DNA of 64,000 bases from Parcubacteria group bacterium (GTDB lineage Bacteria > Patescibacteriota > Patescibacteriia > UBA2169): the NCBI GenBank assembly GCA_016181765.1, contig JACOYR010000001.1:16847-80846 (forward strand). Reading direction: 5' to 3'. The translations under genes were made by a program, and so were the position numbers. The notes beneath the pieces were generated by a model. The model was given only the letters and a program-made list of their open reading frames with translations. It did not search any database and was not told where the DNA came from. The stretch's first letter is position 1, and every line of letters starts with the position of its first letter. This document shows, in pieces, positions 3,041 to 54,058 of the stretch.

Positions 3041-3113
3041 GCTCGGGGGCAGGGATTTGAACCCCGATTCACGGCTTCAAAGGCCGCTGTCCTACCATTA
3101 GACGACCCCCGAA
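3041..3113 (-). tRNA. tRNA-Gln (anticodon TTG)
   Basis: Reverse complement folds as cloverleaf: acceptor TCGGGGG/CCCCCGA, D-arm GTCTAATGGTAGGAC, anticodon loop CTTTGAA, T-arm GGGGTTCAAATCCC. Confidence 0.8.
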
Positions 3114-3500: not shown

Positions 3501-3742
3501 GCGCGCCGCGGCCACTGCTTCACAAACGCGTCCCGGGCGGACCGAAGTTCTCTGTCGCTCAATGAGACCGGGGACTTGAGTGATCCTTCCAGAGACCAAA
3601 AATCATCCGTCGGCTGTACGACCATGCGGTTTCCCTGCTCTTGAATAAGCGCTTTGGCGGCTCCTTTGATGCCGAATCGCGCGCGCATTGACTTTGGAAT
3701 GGTGAGCTGCCCCTGCCGCGTAATTGACACAATCTGGTTCAT
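3497..3742 (-). CDS. vapB: AbrB/MazE-fold antitoxin VapB
   Basis: MNQIVSITRQGQLTIPKSMRARFGI swapped-hairpin motif. AT-rich upstream region with TTATTG direct repeats and inverted repeat (probable operator). Confidence 0.75.
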   Translation of the reverse strand: MNQIVSITRQGQLTIPKSMRARFGIKGAAKALIQEQGNRMVVQPTDDFWSLEGSLKSPVSLSDRELRSARDAFVKQWPRRA

Positions 3743-3812
3743 ATTATTATTTCTAACAATAATGCAATAATTCTTTTCATTATCATATATCAAAAATAAT
3801 AGAACGTCAAGT

Positions 3813-4733
3813 TTATACCCTCATATACCTCCGCAAGGCAAGGCTCGTCGCGAACACGGAAATGAGGATGATGCCAAGAAGCTCGCCCCCGAAAATGAGG
3901 GCTACGTTTTGGTTGAGGTACGAGAGCAAGGTGAAATCAACGGGCCCGAGCAGGCCCACCACGTAGGGGTCCGAGAACGTGGCCGCCGCGTACCCAAGCA
4001 CGAACGTGATGCCGCTGCCCACCATGGCGTACAGGATGGCCTCGCCCACGAACGGCCCGCGGATGAACGAGTTGGAAGCTCCCACGAGCTTCATGATGCC
4101 AATCTCGTCGCGGTGCGTGTAAATGGCGATGCGGATGGTGTTCACGATCACGATGAGCGAAATGAGCCCGAAAAATAGAGTGACCCCCCAGCCGATGCGC
4201 TCAAGCTGGCCCGCAATCTGCTCCAGCTTCTCAATGACATAGCTGTTATCGTCAAAGCTTTGGTTGTCTATAAGTACTGCGAACTGCGGGGTCGCGTTCA
4301 GGATGTCTATGACCTTCTGGTAGTCCGACGTGTCAGCGGTATTCACGATTAAGGTGTCCCCGAGCGGATTGTTTGCAAGCTCTTTGAGCGACTCAAGGAT
4401 GAGGGGGCTGTTCTTGTACTGCTCGCGCAGTTTGGCCAGGGCTTCGGACTTGGTGACATGCGCAACCCGCACGACATAGGGCGCATCCTCAAGCGTTTGC
4501 TGGACCACGGCAATCTGCTCTTCTGTGGCAGTCGGCTTAAAGTACACGGATACGTCCACTTTTGATTTGACCAGGCTGATGGCCTCATTCATGACCGCGT
4601 TTATGAACACGAGCGAGGTCACGCTGAAGAGCGTCAGCACGATGATGGTGATGGTTACCATGGAGAGCCAGATATTCCGGGCGAAATTCTGGAGCGAGAA
4701 CTTGGTGATTCGGGAAAGGGAGAGAAAAAGCAT
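3813..4733 (-). CDS. ftsX: Cell division permease FtsX
   Basis: 306 aa, four TM segments, large periplasmic loop. Directly downstream of ftsE. Confidence 0.85.
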   Translation of the reverse strand: MLFLSLSRITKFSLQNFARNIWLSMVTITIIVLTLFSVTSLVFINAVMNEAISLVKSKVDVSVYFKPTATEEQIAVVQQTLEDAPYVVRVAHVTKSEALAKLREQYKNSPLILESLKELANNPLGDTLIVNTADTSDYQKVIDILNATPQFAVLIDNQSFDDNSYVIEKLEQIAGQLERIGWGVTLFFGLISLIVIVNTIRIAIYTHRDEIGIMKLVGASNSFIRGPFVGEAILYAMVGSGITFVLGYAAATFSDPYVVGLLGPVDFTLLSYLNQNVALIFGGELLGIILISVFATSLALRRYMRV

Positions 4734-5573: not shown

Positions 5574-5649
5574 GCCACCTTAGCTCAGCTGGTAGAGCAA
5601 TGCTTTCGTAAAGCAGAGGTCCCGGGTTCGATCCCCGGAGGTGGCTCCA
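5574..5649 (+). tRNA. tRNA-Thr (anticodon CGT), CCA encoded
   Basis: GCCACCT...AGGTGGC acceptor, D-arm GCTCAGCTGGTAGAGC, anticodon loop TTCGTAA, T-arm CCGGGTTCGATCCCCGG. Confidence 0.85.
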
Positions 5650-5650
5650 C

Positions 5651-5724
5651 GCGGGATTAGTACAATGGCAGTACGCTAGCTTCCCAAGCTAGAGAAGCGG
5701 GTCCGATTCCCGTATCCCGCTCCA
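5651..5724 (+). tRNA. tRNA-Gly (anticodon CCC), CCA encoded
   Basis: GCGGGAT...ATCCCGC acceptor, anticodon stem-loop CTAGC-TTCCCAA-GCTAG, T-arm GCGGGTCCGATTCCCGT. Confidence 0.85.
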
Positions 5725-9339: not shown

Positions 9340-9411
9340 GCATTAAATGAGACGTGTTTTTTACAATTAGCGTTACAGTATTATAGCACAAAACGCGGCT
9401 TTGAGGAAAGT

Positions 9412-9473
9412 AAAAAAAGGTGTCAGGTACCTTTTTTGTTTTTTTTCTTAAAAAAGGTACCTGACACCTTTTT
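9412..9473 (-). terminator. Long-stem intrinsic terminator (15-bp stem AAGGTGTCAGGTACC/GGTACCTGACACCTT, U-run on minus strand)
   Basis: Perfect inverted repeat 9417-9431 / 9456-9470, A-run 9412-9418 on plus strand. Lies just 3' of stop of 9474..10160 gene. Confidence 0.6.
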
Positions 9474-10160
9474 TTACCCCCCGAAGAACTGCTCAATGGC
9501 GCGGGCTTTTTCCTCGCTCTCGGCCTCGCGCACCTCGTCAATGAGCTTTTGTTCGTCTTCTTTGTCCCCGGCCTGGATGCGCTTCCAGCGCTCTTCGCCC
9601 GCAAGCGATCGGATCTCGCCGATGACGCGGTGCAAATCCTGCTCCGAGAACTGGCGCGGCGCAAGCGTTACCATAAACTCCTGCTGGGTCTTTAAGATGA
9701 GCTTCTGGATGGCGGCGGGATCTTTAATCTGCCCGAGCTCCACCTTCTCAAAGCTGCCCGGGGTGAGGTACAGGGTGCCCACGTTGATCAGGTTCTGCAG
9801 GATGCCCTTGCGCCGATAGGTGACATCATATATCTTGTCCAAGTCAATCTGGGACACCATGCGGTCCAGAATGCCGTTCTGGCGGATGATGACCACGCGC
9901 TTGCTGGTGATGCCGATGATGCCGTAGTACCACCTCCGCCAGGTGCGGTAGAGCCAGAATGTCCCGGAGAGGAATAGGAGCCCCAGGAGCACGCTCCCAA
10001 GCGTGCCCCAGGTAAGGAATAAATACAGGAAAAAAAACGGCGAAAGAAAGAGGAGGAATCCGCCGATACACTGCCAAAAGTACACGAGCCAAAACTCGTG
10101 GTACACGCCGCGCACGTCCTCGTCGTCATCCAGGTTCTTGATGACTTTCCTAATATCCAT
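9474..10160 (-). CDS. Membrane protein with bacterial PH-like (YdbS/YdbT-type) domain
   Basis: Two TM helices followed by ITSKRVVIIRQNGILDRMVSQIDLDKIYDVTY motif typical of bPH_2/DUF304. Confidence 0.55.
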   Translation of the reverse strand: MDIRKVIKNLDDDEDVRGVYHEFWLVYFWQCIGGFLLFLSPFFFLYLFLTWGTLGSVLLGLLFLSGTFWLYRTWRRWYYGIIGITSKRVVIIRQNGILDRMVSQIDLDKIYDVTYRRKGILQNLINVGTLYLTPGSFEKVELGQIKDPAAIQKLILKTQQEFMVTLAPRQFSEQDLHRVIGEIRSLAGEERWKRIQAGDKEDEQKLIDEVREAESEEKARAIEQFFGG

Positions 10161-32954: not shown

Positions 32955-33242
32955 CTAGCTTTCCTGCATGTAGTCAACGACTATAGCTATAATTTTTTGC
33001 ACCGTCTCGCTGCATGATTTAAATTGAATTCTATCTAAAACGTCATTTCCATACTTCCGCATCAAGTCGCTAATCAGCGCATGAATAAAAGACTGGGTCG
33101 CAGAATCAACGCCTTCAAAATTCAAAACAATGCTTTCTCCTTTTTCCAACGCGGGTATCAGCTGCGCAACCCTTATATTCCTGGCTAAATCCTTGTCTTC
33201 GGCAAACGAGCCGGTTTTGTCGAATAATGTAATGGTTCTCAT
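32955..33242 (-). CDS. STAS-like small protein (DUF4325-type), partner of upstream GHKL ATPase
   Basis: 95 aa; LIPALEKGESIVLNFEGVDSATQSFIHALISDL resembles STAS/anti-anti-sigma fold (DUF4325). Confidence 0.55.
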   Translation of the reverse strand: MRTITLFDKTGSFAEDKDLARNIRVAQLIPALEKGESIVLNFEGVDSATQSFIHALISDLMRKYGNDVLDRIQFKSCSETVQKIIAIVVDYMQES

Positions 33243-33245
33243 AGG

Positions 33246-34214
33246 TTATATAAATTTAGGCTTTCTGTAACGCGCTGTTTTTCTCTCTCTAATAGCCTCG
33301 CGGTATGTTTGCGAGATTAAATCCAAAAGCAGCGAAAACTCGCTCGTGGTCGCCAAAGAAATATCTATGCCAACCACCGTGCCCTCCCAATTGGGAAGAT
33401 GAACCTCGCTCGAATGACGGTCGCGCAACGGGTCAGCATACAATTTAATCTTCTTAATCTTCGACGATTGTCTCTTTAACAGTTTGTACATTGCCGTGCC
33501 GCTGTAAATCACGAAAAAATCCCGATTTACGTTAGCAATTGATTTGATAAAGAATAATCCAGCTCCGGCATTTTGTTCTGTCCCGCCTTCTTTTCTCGTC
33601 GTACCAGTAATGCCAGGAGTTAACGCAAGGCGTATTGCGTCAAGATCATCTTTTGGATTATACGCATTATTAATAGTCTTCCAGATGCCGACCCCGGTAT
33701 CGGCTATTCCGATTCGGATAGTATTGCTCTTTTGAAAATATTGCGCCGCAACAAGAGCACCGTACTGTGACAAAGAGTGCTCAAGCACATTACGCACCAA
33801 CTCGCTGATAATATACCGTATAGGTTCCGCATGTTTTGGACTAAGGTGCAAAAGAGGCGTCATCTCGGTGATAAATTTTTTCAATTCCTCGCTGGTGTTA
33901 ATTTGAGTTAAAGGTATGAATCGTCCGGCTGGTTCATGTTTTTTTATTACCATGTCCGACTGAACACCTAAAAATTTAAAAAGCCCCATGCGTTCCAAGT
34001 AGTGTTTTGACCGCGCAGTAAATTTTTCACACGTAATATATGAGGGGTCTAACTCAAGGCCAAGTGCCGCAACCATTGCCAAAACAACTGGATGAATGGA
34101 TATCCAATTCGGATTCGCGGTAATCTCAAGCTTCCCCTTGTTTGATGGGTCAAAACTCTTAAAAAAAGAATCAATATTACCCAAAAAAGCGCTATTTGGC
34201 AAATGTATCTTCAT
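33246..34214 (-). CDS. GHKL-superfamily ATPase (anti-sigma-factor/RsbW-like kinase fold) with about 120-aa N-terminal extension
   Basis: N-box ISELVRNVLEHS, G1 GIADTGVGI, G2 GTTRKEGGTEQNAGAGLFF. 4-nt spacing to downstream STAS-like gene. Confidence 0.7.
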   Translation of the reverse strand: MKIHLPNSAFLGNIDSFFKSFDPSNKGKLEITANPNWISIHPVVLAMVAALGLELDPSYITCEKFTARSKHYLERMGLFKFLGVQSDMVIKKHEPAGRFIPLTQINTSEELKKFITEMTPLLHLSPKHAEPIRYIISELVRNVLEHSLSQYGALVAAQYFQKSNTIRIGIADTGVGIWKTINNAYNPKDDLDAIRLALTPGITGTTRKEGGTEQNAGAGLFFIKSIANVNRDFFVIYSGTAMYKLLKRQSSKIKKIKLYADPLRDRHSSEVHLPNWEGTVVGIDISLATTSEFSLLLDLISQTYREAIRERKTARYRKPKFI

Positions 34215-36196: not shown

Positions 36197-36227
36197 GTAG
36201 GCATACAAAAAGTTCTTTTTATCCTCT

Positions 36228-36274
36228 TCTGACTACTGTTTTATAGGTTAAATGCCTATAGACCAGTAGTCAGA
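36228..36274. promoter_or_regulatory. Operator-like palindrome TCTGACTACTG-N25-CAGTAGTCAGA (with inner TATAGG/CCTATA repeat) in the 5' leader/divergent promoter region
   Basis: 11-bp perfect arms 36228-36238 / 36264-36274. Confidence 0.45.
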
Positions 36275-36340
36275 AAAAAGTCATAATGGGTTGGCTAAAT
36301 GGCCGACCTAGGCAACTCACTTCATTTTTGGAGGTGAACC

Positions 36341-46786: not shown

Positions 46787-47086
46787 TTATGCCAACTCTT
46801 TCATCTTGCCGGTTGAGTACTGGTGCAGAACGGACGACACCAGTGTCTGGTAGGGCAAACCCTTCTCCTGCGCCCGCACTTTCAGCGCGTGTAAATCCCG
46901 CTCCGAGATGCGGATGTTGATGTTGCGCTTCTTGATCAGCGTTGCGCGCGCGGCGGCCACGAGCTTCTGCTTTTCTTCTTCAAGATTGGGCACGCTCTTA
47001 AACTCGCCTCTGTTATAGGCGTCCAGAAGTTCCTTCTCTTCCCTATCTAATGATTCGTAATATTTTTCCTCTAGATCCTGTGGCAT
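46787..47086 (-). CDS. brnA: BrnA antitoxin (ribbon-helix-helix, CopG-like)
   Basis: 99 aa; C-terminal RISERDLHALKVRAQEKGLPYQTLVSSVLHQY RHH motif; paired with BrnT. Confidence 0.7.
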   Translation of the reverse strand: MPQDLEEKYYESLDREEKELLDAYNRGEFKSVPNLEEEKQKLVAAARATLIKKRNINIRISERDLHALKVRAQEKGLPYQTLVSSVLHQYSTGKMKELA

Positions 47087-47089
47087 AGA

Positions 47090-47386
47090 TTATCTCTTAG
47101 TGATATACTTTTTTGTCGCCTTTCGGCTTGGTATGATGGTTTTTAAAAAAATTTTCTCATCATCTTCCACATACGGAACAAGGTACGCGTATCCGCCAAC
47201 TTCCACGACGAACATTTTCTGGTTGGGATACTTTTTCTGATTCAGGTGCCGAATAATGTCCAGCACCCGTTCGTTTTTATTTAGTAGCGGAACCATGTCA
47301 TCAAAACAGACTCCATGCCGAATTCTTAATTGCGAATTTTTGTCTTTGTTCCACTGGTAATCCTTCATGTACACATAATATGACAA
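47090..47386 (-). CDS. brnT: BrnT toxin (DUF497 ribonuclease)
   Basis: 98 aa; WNKDKNSQLRIRHGVCFDDMVPL and FVVEVGGYAYLVPYVEDDEKIFLKTIIPSRKATKKY typical of BrnT. Confidence 0.7.
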   Translation of the reverse strand: MSYYVYMKDYQWNKDKNSQLRIRHGVCFDDMVPLLNKNERVLDIIRHLNQKKYPNQKMFVVEVGGYAYLVPYVEDDEKIFLKTIIPSRKATKKYITKR

Positions 47387-48935: not shown

Positions 48936-49338
48936 CGCGGACCAGCTCCGAGAGGTAGCGGGTGGCCGTGGCATCCGAGACGCGGAGCAATTTTTGCACG
49001 CCATCATTGGTGATGCTCCCCTCTGCGCGGGCGCGGGCCGCGATTTTCTCCAGCTTTGCCCGCTTGCGGAACTGGATTCTCTCCCGTGCCCGCGACAACA
49101 GCCCCCGCACTCCGCTTTCCGTGCCTGCCAGAGAGGCGGCAGGAGCTGGGGATGATGAAGTAACTGGGACCAAAGGCGGGGTTGATGGTTCAGGCGCGGC
49201 TAGCTCGGGTAGGGGTGATGGTGTGGGTACGTCCGCCGGAGAAACGGATTCGGACTGAACCACGGGTTCCACCGGCGGCACGGACGCGGCTGGCTCAACC
49301 GAGGGTTCAGGTGTAATTGCGGGAGTTTCTTGTTGCAT
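48877..49338 (-). CDS. Pro-rich protein with C-terminal winged-helix/HTH DNA-binding domain
   Basis: N-terminal PEPS-rich low complexity. C-terminal ITNDGVQKLLRVSDATATRYLSELVRAGRLKRVG HTH. Minus-strand -10 TGCTATACT at about 49390. Confidence 0.5.
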   Translation of the reverse strand: MQQETPAITPEPSVEPAASVPPVEPVVQSESVSPADVPTPSPLPELAAPEPSTPPLVPVTSSSPAPAASLAGTESGVRGLLSRARERIQFRKRAKLEKIAARARAEGSITNDGVQKLLRVSDATATRYLSELVRAGRLKRVGAASHARYEPVS

Positions 49339-49429
49339 TGATTGGATGATAGGGCAAAAAGGTACCTTTAGGCTTTCCTTATGATGTCAGTATAGCATAT
49401 CAACATTTGTACCGAGATTACTCTCTTAG

Positions 49430-49568
49430 GACTTACGCGTTTGACAGAAATAGTCGTCATTCTGGAGGCTTTGTACTCAAAGCCGATAGAATCTCCGTGA
49501 AAAACGCATAGATTCTATCGCTCAAGAGTACTTTCGCTCCAGAATGACGTCAAACGCGTAAGTCCTAT
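49430..49568. repeat. Long imperfect palindrome (about 140 nt) forming an extended hairpin at the boundary of the AT-rich island
   Basis: GGACTTACGCGTTTGAC/GTCAAACGCGTAAGTCC (17 bp), GTCATTCTGGAG/CTCCAGAATGAC (12 bp), GATAGAATCT/AGATTCTATC (10 bp), centre CCGTGAAAAACGC. Confidence 0.65.
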
Positions 49569-49570
49569 CT

Positions 49571-50221
49571 CTAACAAATTTGCACATTCCCATCGCCTAG
49601 GCACACTTGGTGCTTCAGATCCCATAATAAGTATCTAATGTAGTGAGTTTCTTCAGGCGATGATTCGCTACTCAAAAGCTTGTGTATATTTCGTGCAAAA
49701 AACTTCTTTGAATTTCTACTGGCTTGAGCGCTTGAATTTCCCTTGAGTAAGGAGATAGCCACTTGGTTTGAGGGCTCAAGGAAAAGTTCGGCCACTGTAT
49801 CTTGATGGGGGCGTGAAATCTGATGCTCATCGTACCAAAAAATAAAATCCGCATCGTACCCTATATACGAAAAAGTGCCGGACTTTACGCTTTTAGGTCC
49901 TAACTCAACTGCTGATTGACACGATAAAGCGTATACAACCCTAGATTCAAAAATATCCTCATTAACACCCGCCCGAACTAGAATCTTATCATCTTGTCCG
50001 GTGACATGACCTGGACCACCATGACCATTTATAAAAACAAATGAGGGCTTGAGCTTCTTGACTCTGCTTTCAAATTCTTTTTTATTTGCTTTCTCGCCAT
50101 GGAGATCAAATAGCCTAAATCCTTTTGCATTGATAATTTTTATTACCTTGCCAGCCCATGCAGATAAATACCGAGTTGGAATATCATGATTAGGCCTCGT
50201 CACTAAGCACGCTATACTCAT
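49571..50221 (-). CDS. Hypothetical protein with minimal caspase-like (CHAT/C14-like) His-Cys dyad; AT-rich island gene 3
   Basis: 216 aa. Hydrophobic strand plus H (PSFVFINGHGGPGH) and hydrophobic strand plus C (VVYALSCQSA) about 25 aa apart, reminiscent of the caspase/hemoglobinase fold. GC about 40% vs window about 57%. Confidence 0.5.
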   Translation of the reverse strand: MSIACLVTRPNHDIPTRYLSAWAGKVIKIINAKGFRLFDLHGEKANKKEFESRVKKLKPSFVFINGHGGPGHVTGQDDKILVRAGVNEDIFESRVVYALSCQSAVELGPKSVKSGTFSYIGYDADFIFWYDEHQISRPHQDTVAELFLEPSNQVAISLLKGNSSAQASRNSKKFFARNIHKLLSSESSPEETHYIRYLLWDLKHQVCLGDGNVQIC

Positions 50222-50474
50222 ACAGTTCGCCAGTTTTTAATGACTGCAAAAAATTCATATCAATTTCAATCATTTTTTTGCCTATCTCGTCTCCATCGCT
50301 CACATGCTGGATTAAATCATCTCTGCTAAAAGACCCCTCGCCGCCAATCGACATACTAAAACCAACAGGCATCGCACCGAGACGCGCCTTAACCAATTCT
50401 CGAACATCCTCATCACGCTCTTCCTGTTCCGTCTGTCCGCTCTGTTGTGCATTTTGTGTTTGTGTCGTACTCAT
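50190..50474 (-). CDS. Hypothetical small acidic protein; AT-rich island gene 2
   Basis: 94 aa ORF; overlaps gene 3 start by 32 nt and gene 1 stop by 4 nt. Confidence 0.45.
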   Translation of the reverse strand: MSTTQTQNAQQSGQTEQEERDEDVRELVKARLGAMPVGFSMSIGGEGSFSRDDLIQHVSDGDEIGKKMIEIDMNFLQSLKTGELYEYSVLSDEA

Positions 50475-50665
50475 ATAATTTGAAGTTCGACGAGTTTGTT
50501 AAAAATTTTTTTACCAAGCTCGGTATCATTACTGATCTCAACATAAGCAACATTCCATGTTATGGGAATGCGCCTGTCATTCTCTCGCTCAACCGTCAAG
50601 ACAATATCATCCCGAATATTAATGGGAAGGTTTGCGTAAACTTTCAAAAATCTTGCCTTGTCCAT
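50471..50665 (-). CDS. Hypothetical small protein; AT-rich island gene 1
   Basis: 64 aa ORF, first gene of the three-gene minus-strand cassette. Confidence 0.4.
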   Translation of the reverse strand: MDKARFLKVYANLPINIRDDIVLTVERENDRRIPITWNVAYVEISNDTELGKKIFNKLVELQII

Positions 50666-50928
50666 AGATCTCTAATTTCTTTTATTATACCACATTCTCA
50701 ACATTCACGCCAACACCGTACCACTCCAATCTTGGAAGGTCAAATCATTTATGTATCCCTTCCTCTTTCATCATACCACCTAAATACTTTCTATCCTATA
50801 CACGCCACTCGGCGAGGCAAGCACCAAGGCCAGCGTGCCCGCCGATGAGGTGGATGCCGAGTTTACCCGCCGGAGAGAGGCGGGCTTACCTTGATCCTCG
50901 CGAGAGGCGAGGCTGATTTGACAACTAT

Positions 50929-50957
50929 TGACTTTTTTATTAAAATATGCTATCATT
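50929..50957 (+). promoter_or_regulatory. Sigma70-type promoter (TTGACT-17-TATCAT with TGc extension) for 51005..51709
   Basis: TTGACT 50929-50934; TGCTATCAT 50949-50957; SD AAGGAG then GTG start. Confidence 0.55.
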
Positions 50958-51004
50958 ATATTCACAAAAACCAACCATAATGCACCTACACAAGGAGAAA
51001 GACA

Positions 51005-51854: not shown

Positions 51855-52313
51855 GTGCGTATGCACATAGAAATAGACCAATCCGGAAAAATTGAGCACA
51901 CCAGCAAAACCACGGTTATCGCCTACGCAAACGGCAGTTCAAGAAGCTTGCAGATAAGCGCGAGCGAAAAACAAAAACTCATACGAACGATGAAAACAAA
52001 CAGGCATCCCAAGACCACATACGTGTACACCATATTTGCAACGCTCATATTTATGCTTCTGCGCGACATGCGCGCAAGCGATTCCACAAGCGTCACCATC
52101 GACAGGGAATACCCGGGCAAAGAACCAACTATCAAAAACTTCCTGCTGCAGCTCTACCGGAAAGCCCATAAAAAATCTCCGGCCATACGGTTTGACACTA
52201 TCGGGAAGAAGAGTATGGCGCACAAAGCCGCGCTTGCGGTGTTCCAAAATAAAAAGCGCCCTGACATCATAGTCACGGCCCAAGACGCCTTACAGACGCT
52301 GTACGAGAGATAA
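51855..52313 (+). CDS. Hypothetical protein (AT-rich)
   Basis: 152 aa ORF with TM segment; followed by hairpin ATCCCGG-tccag-CCGGGAT. Confidence 0.4.
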   Translation: MRMHIEIDQSGKIEHTSKTTVIAYANGSSRSLQISASEKQKLIRTMKTNRHPKTTYVYTIFATLIFMLLRDMRASDSTSVTIDREYPGKEPTIKNFLLQLYRKAHKKSPAIRFDTIGKKSMAHKAALAVFQNKKRPDIIVTAQDALQTLYER

Positions 52314-52565
52314 AAAGGTTGGAGATCCCGGTCCAGCCGGGATAATCCTTAGCTAAGAACGCCGATTATGAACGTTGGTCACTAAGGCATCCAACCGTTG
52401 GTGGCAGTATACCACGCCTCCCGGAAAAGTCAAGCCCACGAATTGAGATGTCATTTCAGTAGTGGTGCGTTAAAAATTCAATAGAGACAAAGCATAAACC
52501 ACGCTCATCATCTCATCCTACGCTCTTGAGTACAAGAGCTTCGGACGACAGGCGGCAGAAGACTC

Positions 52566-52907
52566 TCATCCTGAAATCTTTTCAATCGTAGAAGGCACAA
52601 TATATATATCCCAATCCGACATACCGATCACATCAACAATTTCATACCTGATTTTTACCGGCAATCCAACTTTCTTGAATTCATTCGGCAATTCATAAAT
52701 AGCCGACGTATCTGAAAAAGAAAGACGTTCTTTTTTTACCGGAATACCAAGAAAGGTGCGGCTGGTTTCAATCCCCCACCAACCACCATCTTGATCTATA
52801 TACTGAATCGTTCCAACGCGCGTCTTAGTCTGCATCGGGTCTATCACCCAAAATGCCCCATACATTATCAATCCAACTATTGCAATAACCAAAATCTTTT
52901 TTATCAT
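52566..52907 (-). CDS. Hypothetical membrane-anchored protein
   Basis: 113 aa, N-terminal TM; 4-nt overlap with rarA. Confidence 0.45.
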   Translation of the reverse strand: MIKKILVIAIVGLIMYGAFWVIDPMQTKTRVGTIQYIDQDGGWWGIETSRTFLGIPVKKERLSFSDTSAIYELPNEFKKVGLPVKIRYEIVDVIGMSDWDIYIVPSTIEKISG

Positions 52908-54058
52908 AGATACTTCTTATTTTTCAACTCCTCCGGCAGAAAGCTCTCATCAGTATACTTCTCATACCCATTGCCATAACCCAGCTCCTTCATCAACCCT
53001 GTCGGCGCATTGCGGATATTGAGGGGAACCGGGAGGTTGCCGTGCTGTTTCACATCCGCTTGAGCGGCGCGCAGGGCATCATAGCTGGAGCGGTCCTTTT
53101 TGCATTGGCACAAATACGCCACTCCATGGGCGAGGTTAATGGCGCACTCCGGGTAGCCGATGGTTTCGCAGCTGCGGAACACGGCGTTGGCGACGACGAG
53201 AGCCGTGGGCGCGGCCAGGCCAATGTCCTCGCTCGCGAATATCACCATCCGGCGGGCAATAAAGAGCGGGTCCTCCCCCGCGTCCACCATGCGCGCCAAA
53301 TAGTAGATGGCGGCGTCCGGCTGGCTCGCGCGCATGCTTTTGATGAACGCGCTGATGACGTTGTAATGCTCCTCCCCTTTTTTGTCGTAACGCAAATGTT
53401 TTGATTGGAGCGCCTGTTTGAGGTTTGCGACGGTGATATCCTTGTACAGGGTTGCGGTTGCCTCCAGCATGGAGATGGCGGCGCGGGCGTCTCCGTTTGC
53501 CATGGCAATGAGCCAGTCCTTGGCATCCTGGTCCACAGAACCTCCCCTAGCCCCTCCTTGGTAAGGAGGGGAATTTAGGATGCGGTTGATGATGGAGAGC
53601 ATATCATCTTTTGTGAGCTCGTTGAGGACGAACACGCGGCAGCGTGAGAGGAGCGGGCTGATGACCTCAAAGCTCGGGTTTTCCGTGGTCGCGCCAATGA
53701 GCGTAAGCTCCCCGGTTTCAACGTAGGGCAGGAGAAAATCCTGTTGGGCCTTGTTGAAGCGGTGAATTTCGTCAAGAAACAATACTTTTGATTTTTCAGT
53801 TTCATGGCTGATGATGTGCTTGATGTCTGCTTTGCCCGCGGACACGGCAGACAGCTCAAACAGCTCCGCATCCAGGGCGCGGGCATAGATTTTGGCGAGC
53901 GTGGTTTTGCCTACACCCGGCGGGCCCCAGAGGATGAATGAAAAGAGGTGCTTTTCCTGGATGGCAACGCGCAAAGGCTTGTCCGGGCCCACAAGATGCT
54001 CTTGGCCCATGAATTCATCCAAAGACTTGGGGCGGATTTTTGAGGCAAGGGGTTCCAT
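52904..54058 (-). CDS. rarA: Replication-associated recombination protein A (RarA/MgsA AAA+ ATPase)
   Basis: Walker A GPPGVGKTT, Walker B VLFLDEIHRFNK, sensor motifs, C-terminal MgsA domain. Contains in-frame palindromic repeat insertion (see repeat copy 3). Confidence 0.85.
   Translation of the reverse strand: MEPLASKIRPKSLDEFMGQEHLVGPDKPLRVAIQEKHLFSFILWGPPGVGKTTLAKIYARALDAELFELSAVSAGKADIKHIISHETEKSKVLFLDEIHRFNKAQQDFLLPYVETGELTLIGATTENPSFEVISPLLSRCRVFVLNELTKDDMLSIINRILNSPPYQGGARGGSVDQDAKDWLIAMANGDARAAISMLEATATLYKDITVANLKQALQSKHLRYDKKGEEHYNVISAFIKSMRASQPDAAIYYLARMVDAGEDPLFIARRMVIFASEDIGLAAPTALVVANAVFRSCETIGYPECAINLAHGVAYLCQCKKDRSSYDALRAAQADVKQHGNLPVPLNIRNAPTGLMKELGYGNGYEKYTDESFLPEELKNKKYL
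53549..53585 (-). repeat. Palindromic repeat family copy 3 (CCCCTCCTTGGTAAGGAGGGG + CTAGGGGAGG), located inside rarA coding sequence in frame (encodes SPPYQGGARGG linker)
   Basis: rc reads AATTCCCCTCCTTACCAAGGAGGGGCTAGGGGAGG = ...N S P P Y Q G G A R G G... Confidence 0.65.

Follow-up and report, generated by a model that had tools for sequence, protein, structure and literature searches.

The 64,000 nucleotides of Parcubacteria group bacterium DNA analysed here (a stretch of contig JACOYR010000001.1, hereafter the window) contain a long palindrome between two minus-strand genes, which raised the question of what kind of sequence it represents. A MITE, a cruciform recombination site and a structured RNA had all been named as candidates in the initial annotation of this stretch. 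The evidence presented below makes it very likely that the element is a 141-bp non-coding MITE, a derivative or parasite of a small IS701-family IS that circulates in Patescibacteria.

Structure of the palindrome and its insertion site

The long imperfect palindrome described in the initial annotation was present, and its exact limits were established as 49427-49567 (141 bp) instead of 49430-49568. The 12-bp stem was recovered as previously described, and the outer arm, previously read as 17 bp, was found to be 19 bp long. The GC content of the element was 44%, and no ORF of at least 40 aa was found within 49427-49567. The spacer AGAAATAGTC separated the left terminal repeat from the subterminal CGTCATTC motif. 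The inner arms comprised 40 nt and were 75% complementary overall, with imperfect pairing beyond the 12-bp stem. Folding of both strands, which had been put forward as a check on the palindrome, yielded RNA structures of -78.5 kcal/mol (z -12.6) for the plus strand and -78.3 kcal/mol (z -10.8) for the minus strand, and ssDNA structures of -47.1 and -47.8 kcal/mol (z -11.9 and -13.6). These values were far better than those of shuffled controls, and none of 200 shuffles matched the RNA or ssDNA folds of the 141-bp sequence. The hairpin extends over the whole length because the element consists of two inverted halves, each composed of a terminal repeat and a subterminal CGTCATTC-hairpin-GAATC unit; it is in itself no designed RNA or recombination structure. 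The coordinates of all the features are listed in Table 1.

Table 1. Features of the palindromic element, its flanks and the housekeeping RNA genes of the window
Feature	Position	Strand	Remarks
Complete element, very probably a non-autonomous MITE	49427-49567	.	Defined by inverted repeats, edge of similarity and flanking duplication
Left target-site duplication TCTCT	49422-49426	.	
Right target-site duplication TCTCT	49568-49572	.	Overlaps two bases of the TAG stop codon at 49571-49573
Left terminal inverted repeat TAGGACTTACGCGTTTGAC	49427-49445	+	19/19 complementary to the right end
Right terminal inverted repeat, plus-strand reading GTCAAACGCGTAAGTCCTA	49549-49567	-	19/19 complementary to the left end
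One-sided 10-nt spacer or bulge AGAAATAGTC	49446-49455	+	Unpaired in folds
12-bp stem GTCATTCTGGAG/CTCCAGAATGAC	49456-49467 and 49537-49548		
Central loop CCGTGAAAAACGC	49495-49507		
Half-unit 1, CGTCATTC...AGAATCTCC	49455-49497	+	Local hairpin ATTCTG/TAGAAT plus GGCTTTG/CAAAGCC
Half-unit 2, CGTCATTC...AGAATCTATG	49507-49549	-	Inverted partner of half-unit 1; degenerate local hairpin
Flanking gene HYT31_00350	49571-50221	-	216-aa conserved Patescibacteria protein
Flanking ORF of 153 aa	48877-49338	-	Weak C-terminal winged-helix signal
Housekeeping RNAs (RNase P RNA class A, tRNAs)	23745-24151; 3042-3112; 5574-5721; 60906-60976		

The element begins 3 nt past the stop codon of the 216-aa ORF, and the ATG of the next minus-strand ORF lies 88 nt beyond its left end, which fits its previously annotated placement between a gene start at 49338 and a stop at 49571. 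The insertion kept the stop codon of the 216-aa gene and left the gene undisrupted. The encoded protein, named hypothetical protein HYT31_00350 (Parcubacteria group bacterium) at NCBI, had 412 homologues across Patescibacteria, about 50-58% identical, and no match to Pfam or to PDB sequences. An NGHGG...ALSCQS pattern in its sequence could be a His/Cys dyad, and the caspase-like label of the initial annotation, which these sequence comparisons did not confirm, may still hold. The ORF on the other side had been annotated as an HTH gene; winged-helix matches were indeed present, weak and sub-threshold, and an exact-protein look-up of this 153-aa ORF found no record.

The GC content changed at about 49340, from about 63% on the left to 42-49% on the right. 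Low-GC patches of 42-49% were located at 49340-51000, 52000-53000, 33000-34000 and 24000-25000, the segment average being about 57%, and the patch next to the element contained three small same-strand ORFs (216, 94 and 64 aa) with no Pfam matches. The proposal that the palindrome marks an island boundary was not upheld. The element is flanked by its own intact 5-bp duplication and therefore represents a simple insertion, not the end of a larger island. It does not bound the low-GC block, and the adjacent 216-aa gene belongs to the broadly distributed Patescibacteria family described above.

Distribution and boundaries of elements sharing the terminus

Additional copies, for which a search had been recommended in the initial annotation, were found outside the window; within its 64 kb a second copy was sought and the element proved to be single. 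When one-genome-per-species bacterial and archaeal contigs (596 Gb) were searched with the exact 19-mer TAGGACTTACGCGTTTGAC, it was present in 69 stretches from about 28 MAGs, where by our own arithmetic about 4 occurrences would be expected by chance. The MAGs were nearly all Patescibacteria (Moran-, Uhr-, Taylor-, Lipton-, Falkow-, Kuenen- and Sungiibacteria, Saccharibacteria and unclassified Parcubacteria). Three of them carried other labels, namely Bdellovibrionales (L027, L061 and L074, CAYLWX01) or Gammaproteobacteria (L048 and L072); this may be due either to genuine horizontal transfer or to errors in binning or labelling. The 19-mer was also present in at least 120 metagenome contigs, many of them named 'Hain-H..', which we take to be Hainich groundwater samples. 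Viral contigs contained no match to the 19-mer, and blastn of 49380-49620 against phage and plasmid collections returned no match.

Similarity was lost sharply outside TAGGAC in all 76 family termini. The terminus was conserved through position 17, giving a nearly invariant 17-nt TAGGACTTACGCGTTTG, and its inverted partner, slightly degenerate in sequence, lay at a distance of 46-286 bp, with 131-178 bp as the commonest spacing. The exact 19-mer formed both ends in only 2 of 102 distinct elements, one of which was the window copy; its two perfect termini suggest that this copy is recent or well kept. Exact 5-bp duplications flanked 36 of the 60 non-redundant genome elements (0.56% in mismatched-flank controls) and 43 of the 80 metagenome elements (0.57% in the equivalent controls). 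Other duplication lengths were rare in the genome set, with counts of 4, 2, 1, 0 and 0 for 3, 4, 6, 7 and 8 bp, respectively. The duplicated pentamers were AT-rich and all different, and the family comprised many independent insertions. A TA duplication of the IS630 kind, with ends starting at GGAC, was considered and rejected, since the 5-bp flanks outside TAGGAC were duplicated in most copies.

The interiors of the family differed strongly between lineages. A BLAST search with the interior of the window copy against more than 190 fetched loci recovered nothing beyond itself, and the subfamily-specific 23-mer ACGCGTTTGACGTCATTCTGGAG had no match in metagenome contigs. The MAG H32-bin131_1 (contigs JBBTTG0100000xx, loci L009-L075) contained about 34 exact terminus matches, nearly all of which belonged to near-identical copies of one 177-bp element, with a 228-bp variant in L011 and L063. 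The pattern suggests that the element multiplied recently in a genome that is presumably very small, and such a number in one MAG is notable for genomes of this size. At L009:5292-5468, a 177-bp copy abutted the truncated terminus of another copy (TTAGGACTTACGC joined to TAGGACTTACGCG) without a clean duplication, suggesting insertion into, or recombination with, a pre-existing copy. Overall, the family with the nearly invariant TAGGACTTACGCGTTTG terminus and its IS701 relatives occupies many Patescibacteria lineages and is abundant in groundwater metagenomes.

Further information was obtained from short-read assemblies. Six Logan contigs (SRR121133xx/SRR121134xx), retrieved via the 216-aa protein, ended at the same base 33 nt past the gene. 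All six ended in TAGGACTTACGCGTTTGACGTCATTCTGGA, that is, 30 nt from the outer edge of the palindrome inward. One left-flank contig from the same sample began with the outermost 30 nt of the left end, in reverse complement. The Logan assemblies presumably use k=31, so that 30 nt equals k-1, and a contig that ends k-1 bases into a sequence points to a node that is entered from several flanks. As the breaks were located 30 nt inside both ends, the samples hold further copies with identical termini. Breakage of k=31 assemblies by the palindrome itself was rejected, as the two 30-mers differ after position 19, and with an empty-site allele the break would fall in the flank, not within the element. 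The source genome itself may hold other copies and a full IS, a point on which the contig breaks are the observation that bears. Short-read assemblies are thus interrupted at predictable places by this family, a point to bear in mind when CPR genomes are closed.

Full-length copies carrying an IS701-family transposase

Several loci contained full-length copies of 1.06-1.10 kb with the same ends, 5-bp duplications and a DDE transposase of 320-325 aa. The copy at L034:2625-3684 (Sungiibacteriota; 1060 bp, duplication AGTAT) was filled by a 323-aa ORF (L034:2707-3678), whose product matched NCBIfam NF049921 transpos_IS701_2 with 359.2 bits (cutoff 250) and Pfam DDE_Tnp_1 with 3.4e-15; a Y-x2-R-x3-E-x6-K signature was readable in the protein sequence. 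Further full-length copies were identified in L128 (1086 bp, duplication ATCGT) and, with the same ends, in L083 and L171. Three more were found through the transposase protein alone: L198 (1075 bp, duplication ATATA), L196 (1068 bp, duplication ATAAA, with a 58% identical transposase and diverged ends CAGGAGTTACGCGTTTG) and L197, a 1,072-bp contig that was essentially the IS. The Uhrbacteria loci L012 and L179 had the same ends around a transposase that was only 50% identical, and L015, also with the same ends, encoded a transposase that was 93% identical over a C-terminal fragment. In L120 (1063 bp, same ends), tblastn found no transposase. The same or near-identical ends thus enclosed an IS701-type transposase in L034, L198, L128, L179, L012 and L196, and the window 19-mer was identical to the right end of L034 and to the ends of L198 and L012. 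The initial reading of the palindrome as a MITE is supported by these ends shared with an autonomous IS, by the 5-bp duplications and by the many copies elsewhere.

The transposase clade comprised 1,557 members at E <= 1e-20. The contigs that carry them mostly measured 1.0-1.4 kb, which means that the IS assembles by itself. None of the 120 transposase homologues listed carried an HYT31 tag, and a transposase gene was sought in the 64-kb window without success. The transposase ORF ended in ...GSNA*, with its TAA stop inside the right terminal repeat (GTCAAACGCG-TAA-GTCCTA; L034:3664-3684 and equivalents). This repeat is therefore constrained both as coding sequence and as a binding site. Between L034 and L012, whose transposases were only 50% identical, the 19-nt terminus was the same.

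We propose that a full-length copy supplies the DDE transposase in trans and that the enzyme would bind the 17-19-bp terminal repeats, TAGGACTTACGCGTTTG(AC). By analogy with the DDE enzymes of the IS4/IS701 group, the transposase would cut at the outer T and the element would be joined to a 5-bp staggered cut in AT-rich target DNA. Repair of the stagger would leave the 5-bp duplication, here TCTCT. The empty site would read ...TTTGTTAGAGAGTAATCTCGG... with a single AGAGA; an empty-site allele was sought through orthologues of the 216-aa gene and none was found, the nearest homologues of this flanking gene being at most 58% identical. The window copy may still be mobile.

The element resembles bacterial MITEs such as MITEAba12 of Acinetobacter (PMC6382973) and the Correia elements of Neisseria in being small and non-coding. 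It likewise shares with them IS-identical terminal repeats, a fixed-length duplication, many copies across genomes, a typically intergenic position and the capacity to form a hairpin. In contrast to these elements, its partner belongs to the IS701 family and its hosts are Patescibacteria, and the interior of its family varies strongly between lineages whereas the 17-nt terminus is nearly invariant. Among IS701-family elements, ISDge5 of Deinococcus geothermalis and ISAba11 of Acinetobacter have, like the full-length relatives described here, a single DDE transposase and terminal inverted repeats. ISDge5 was shown experimentally to make 5-nt direct repeats (PMC8533066), and the full-length relatives also had 5-bp duplications. 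Unlike such ISs, the window element lacks a transposase. The full-length relatives are short (1.06-1.10 kb) and have the transposase stop inside the right repeat, and the family terminus TAGGACTTACGCGTTTG is unlike the ISDge5 repeat CTCAGGAGTTGCACCT. In the papers covered by our literature search, neither this terminus nor MITEs of Patescibacteria were mentioned; MITEs and the IS701 family are both known, and this terminus family seems not to have been described before.

Interior half-units and competing explanations

The two halves of the interior were examined individually. Half-unit 1 formed a local ssDNA fold of -8.9 kcal/mol (z -3.9). The local fold of half-unit 2 was no better than shuffles (z +0.5), and in the full-length fold this half paired with half-unit 1. 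The ordered skeleton GTCATYC..GRATC..GATYC..GRATGAC was present in 26 of 93 distinct members, including the window copy, and in none of 200 interior shuffles. Only one end of these elements has a spacer (8-25 nt) separating the terminal repeat from the motif; this is a trait of the subfamily, and the bulge of the window copy corresponds to it. These units recall the NTS CGTCATTCCCGCGMAVGCGGGAATCYRG/dRS3 and SRM sequences, which are targets of Ssn, small GIY-YIG single-strand DNA nucleases (PMC11893778); Patescibacteria are not mentioned in the main text of that paper. Both groups of sequences have a 5' (C/T)GTCAT, a short hairpin based on ATTC...GAAT and then ATC(C/T)(A/G)G. The published SRM pattern, HGTCWYN(0-2)YYVSBRHN(0-5)WNVSBRGN(0-2)RNCYNB (PMC11893778), occurred in 33 of 149 related element instances. 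Its density was 1.79 per kb in the elements versus 0.031 per kb in 1.17 Mb of surrounding DNA, a 58-fold difference, with 75 matches in total versus 1-7 in composition-matched surrogates. Of the matches outside the elements, about half were remote from every terminus, which indicates that such hairpins occur independently as well. The NTS was matched at 28 of 28 positions at L038:2946-2973 and at 27 of 28 in L045. NTS-like hairpins were observed at L045:160-187 and 4478-4505, and Patescibacteria contigs carry many others.

These similarities raise the alternative that the element is in essence a pair of SRM/NTS-like hairpins, in which each strand would offer a CGTCAT-hairpin-ATC site to an Ssn-family nuclease and the IS701-type ends would be a mere vehicle. 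Both halves of the window copy begin with CGTCATTC and end with AGAATC, and the ordered skeleton, the SRM density and the NTS matches of the relatives argue in the same direction. However, the SRM pattern was absent from the window copy, as was any match to the NTS with 3 or fewer mismatches; a significant local hairpin was formed by one half alone, and the stems of this copy are longer than those of the NTS and SRMs, and imperfect. The units of the subfamily also differ from NTS and SRMs in forming an inverted pair enclosed by transposon ends, with no ssn gene found nearby. No GIY-YIG ORF was found in the 64-kb window with a loose pattern and phmmer. The two hits at fetched loci were confirmed with Pfam; these small GIY-YIG proteins resembled UPF0213 and are at most candidate Ssn/cd10448 members. 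Moreover, this explanation leaves the terminal repeats and the 5-bp duplications unaccounted for, and would at best add to the MITE explanation. We consider it unlikely, and the related idea that the subfamily spreads Ssn recognition hairpins through Patescibacteria, with the window copy as a diverged member serving a lineage-specific nuclease, is similarly doubtful. If true, it would connect the spread of transposons with how uptake-dependent bacteria control incoming single-stranded DNA, and a vehicle for Ssn hairpins would give a mechanism for the multiplication of such hairpin repeats. The NTS-like hairpins in many members are in any case a lead on how SRMs spread, one that is not established for the window copy.

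A structured RNA selected for its function, whether as a terminator, as a 3' hairpin stabilising the mRNA of the 216-aa gene or as a leader of the next gene, was judged much less probable still. In its favour, a stop codon 3 nt away on one side and a same-strand gene starting 88 nt away on the other make transcription of the element probable, the RNA fold reaches -78 kcal/mol (z about -11 to -13), and transcripts are known to be affected by other bacterial MITEs. Against this reading, a promoter and terminator consensus scan of 49250-49700 found nothing, and the minus-strand sequence following the hairpin, AGAGAGTAATC, contained no U-tract, in agreement with the initial remark that the hairpin is far longer than an intrinsic terminator. 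There was no Rfam match at the gathering threshold, and a permissive Rfam scan gave only mir-234 (19.8 bits against a gathering value of 58, E 0.41), a chance match. The same family is inserted with target duplications in unrelated contexts, and its interiors are not conserved across lineages. The earlier suggestion of a structured RNA or 3' UTR element is thus not supported as an account of what the element is. Any RNA effect, such as that of a 3' hairpin on the upstream transcript, is possible as a by-product of the insertion. The least probable reading, and a highly improbable one, is a site for site-specific recombination, whether an integron attC, a cruciform crossover site (as initially suggested) or an island end bounding the low-GC stretch 49340-51000. 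The GC step and the position immediately after an ORF, as is typical of attC sites, would suit it. Nevertheless, no integrase or recombinase was found among the neighbouring ORFs, there is no second copy in the window to bound an island or to form a cassette array, the intact 5-bp duplication indicates simple insertion into pre-existing sequence, and the family evidence points to DDE transposition. Under the MITE reading, the hairpin is explained as ordinary mobile DNA and no RNA or recombination function is needed.

Several minor observations were made at the related loci and in the window. The GIY-YIG protein of L028 was evaluated as a candidate Ssn and resembled only UPF0213 proteins. In L033, a small GIY-YIG ORF at 3735-4172 on the minus strand (PF01541, 33 bits) lacked the N-terminal 13 profile positions, and a 177-bp MITE with the duplication TGATC (L033:4167-4343) was situated exactly where this ORF is truncated; the gene seems to have been disrupted by the MITE. 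The window contained a perfect 28-bp inverted repeat with a 12-nt loop at 9410-9477 (GTAAAAAAAGGTGTCAGGTACCTTTTTT / AAAAAAGGTACCTGACACCTTTTTTTAC), as well as shorter strong palindromes at 36227-36275 and 62589-62658. An apparent type II toxin-antitoxin pair was located at 46787-47386 on the minus strand, about 2 kb to the left of the 141-bp element. Its toxin was BrnT-like (98 aa, sub-threshold Pfam match) and its antitoxin CopG/BrnA-like (99 aa, PF12441 with 31.3 bits, cutoff 28). A bacterial RNase P RNA of class A (198.9 bits) and four tRNA genes were the ordinary housekeeping RNAs identified in the window.
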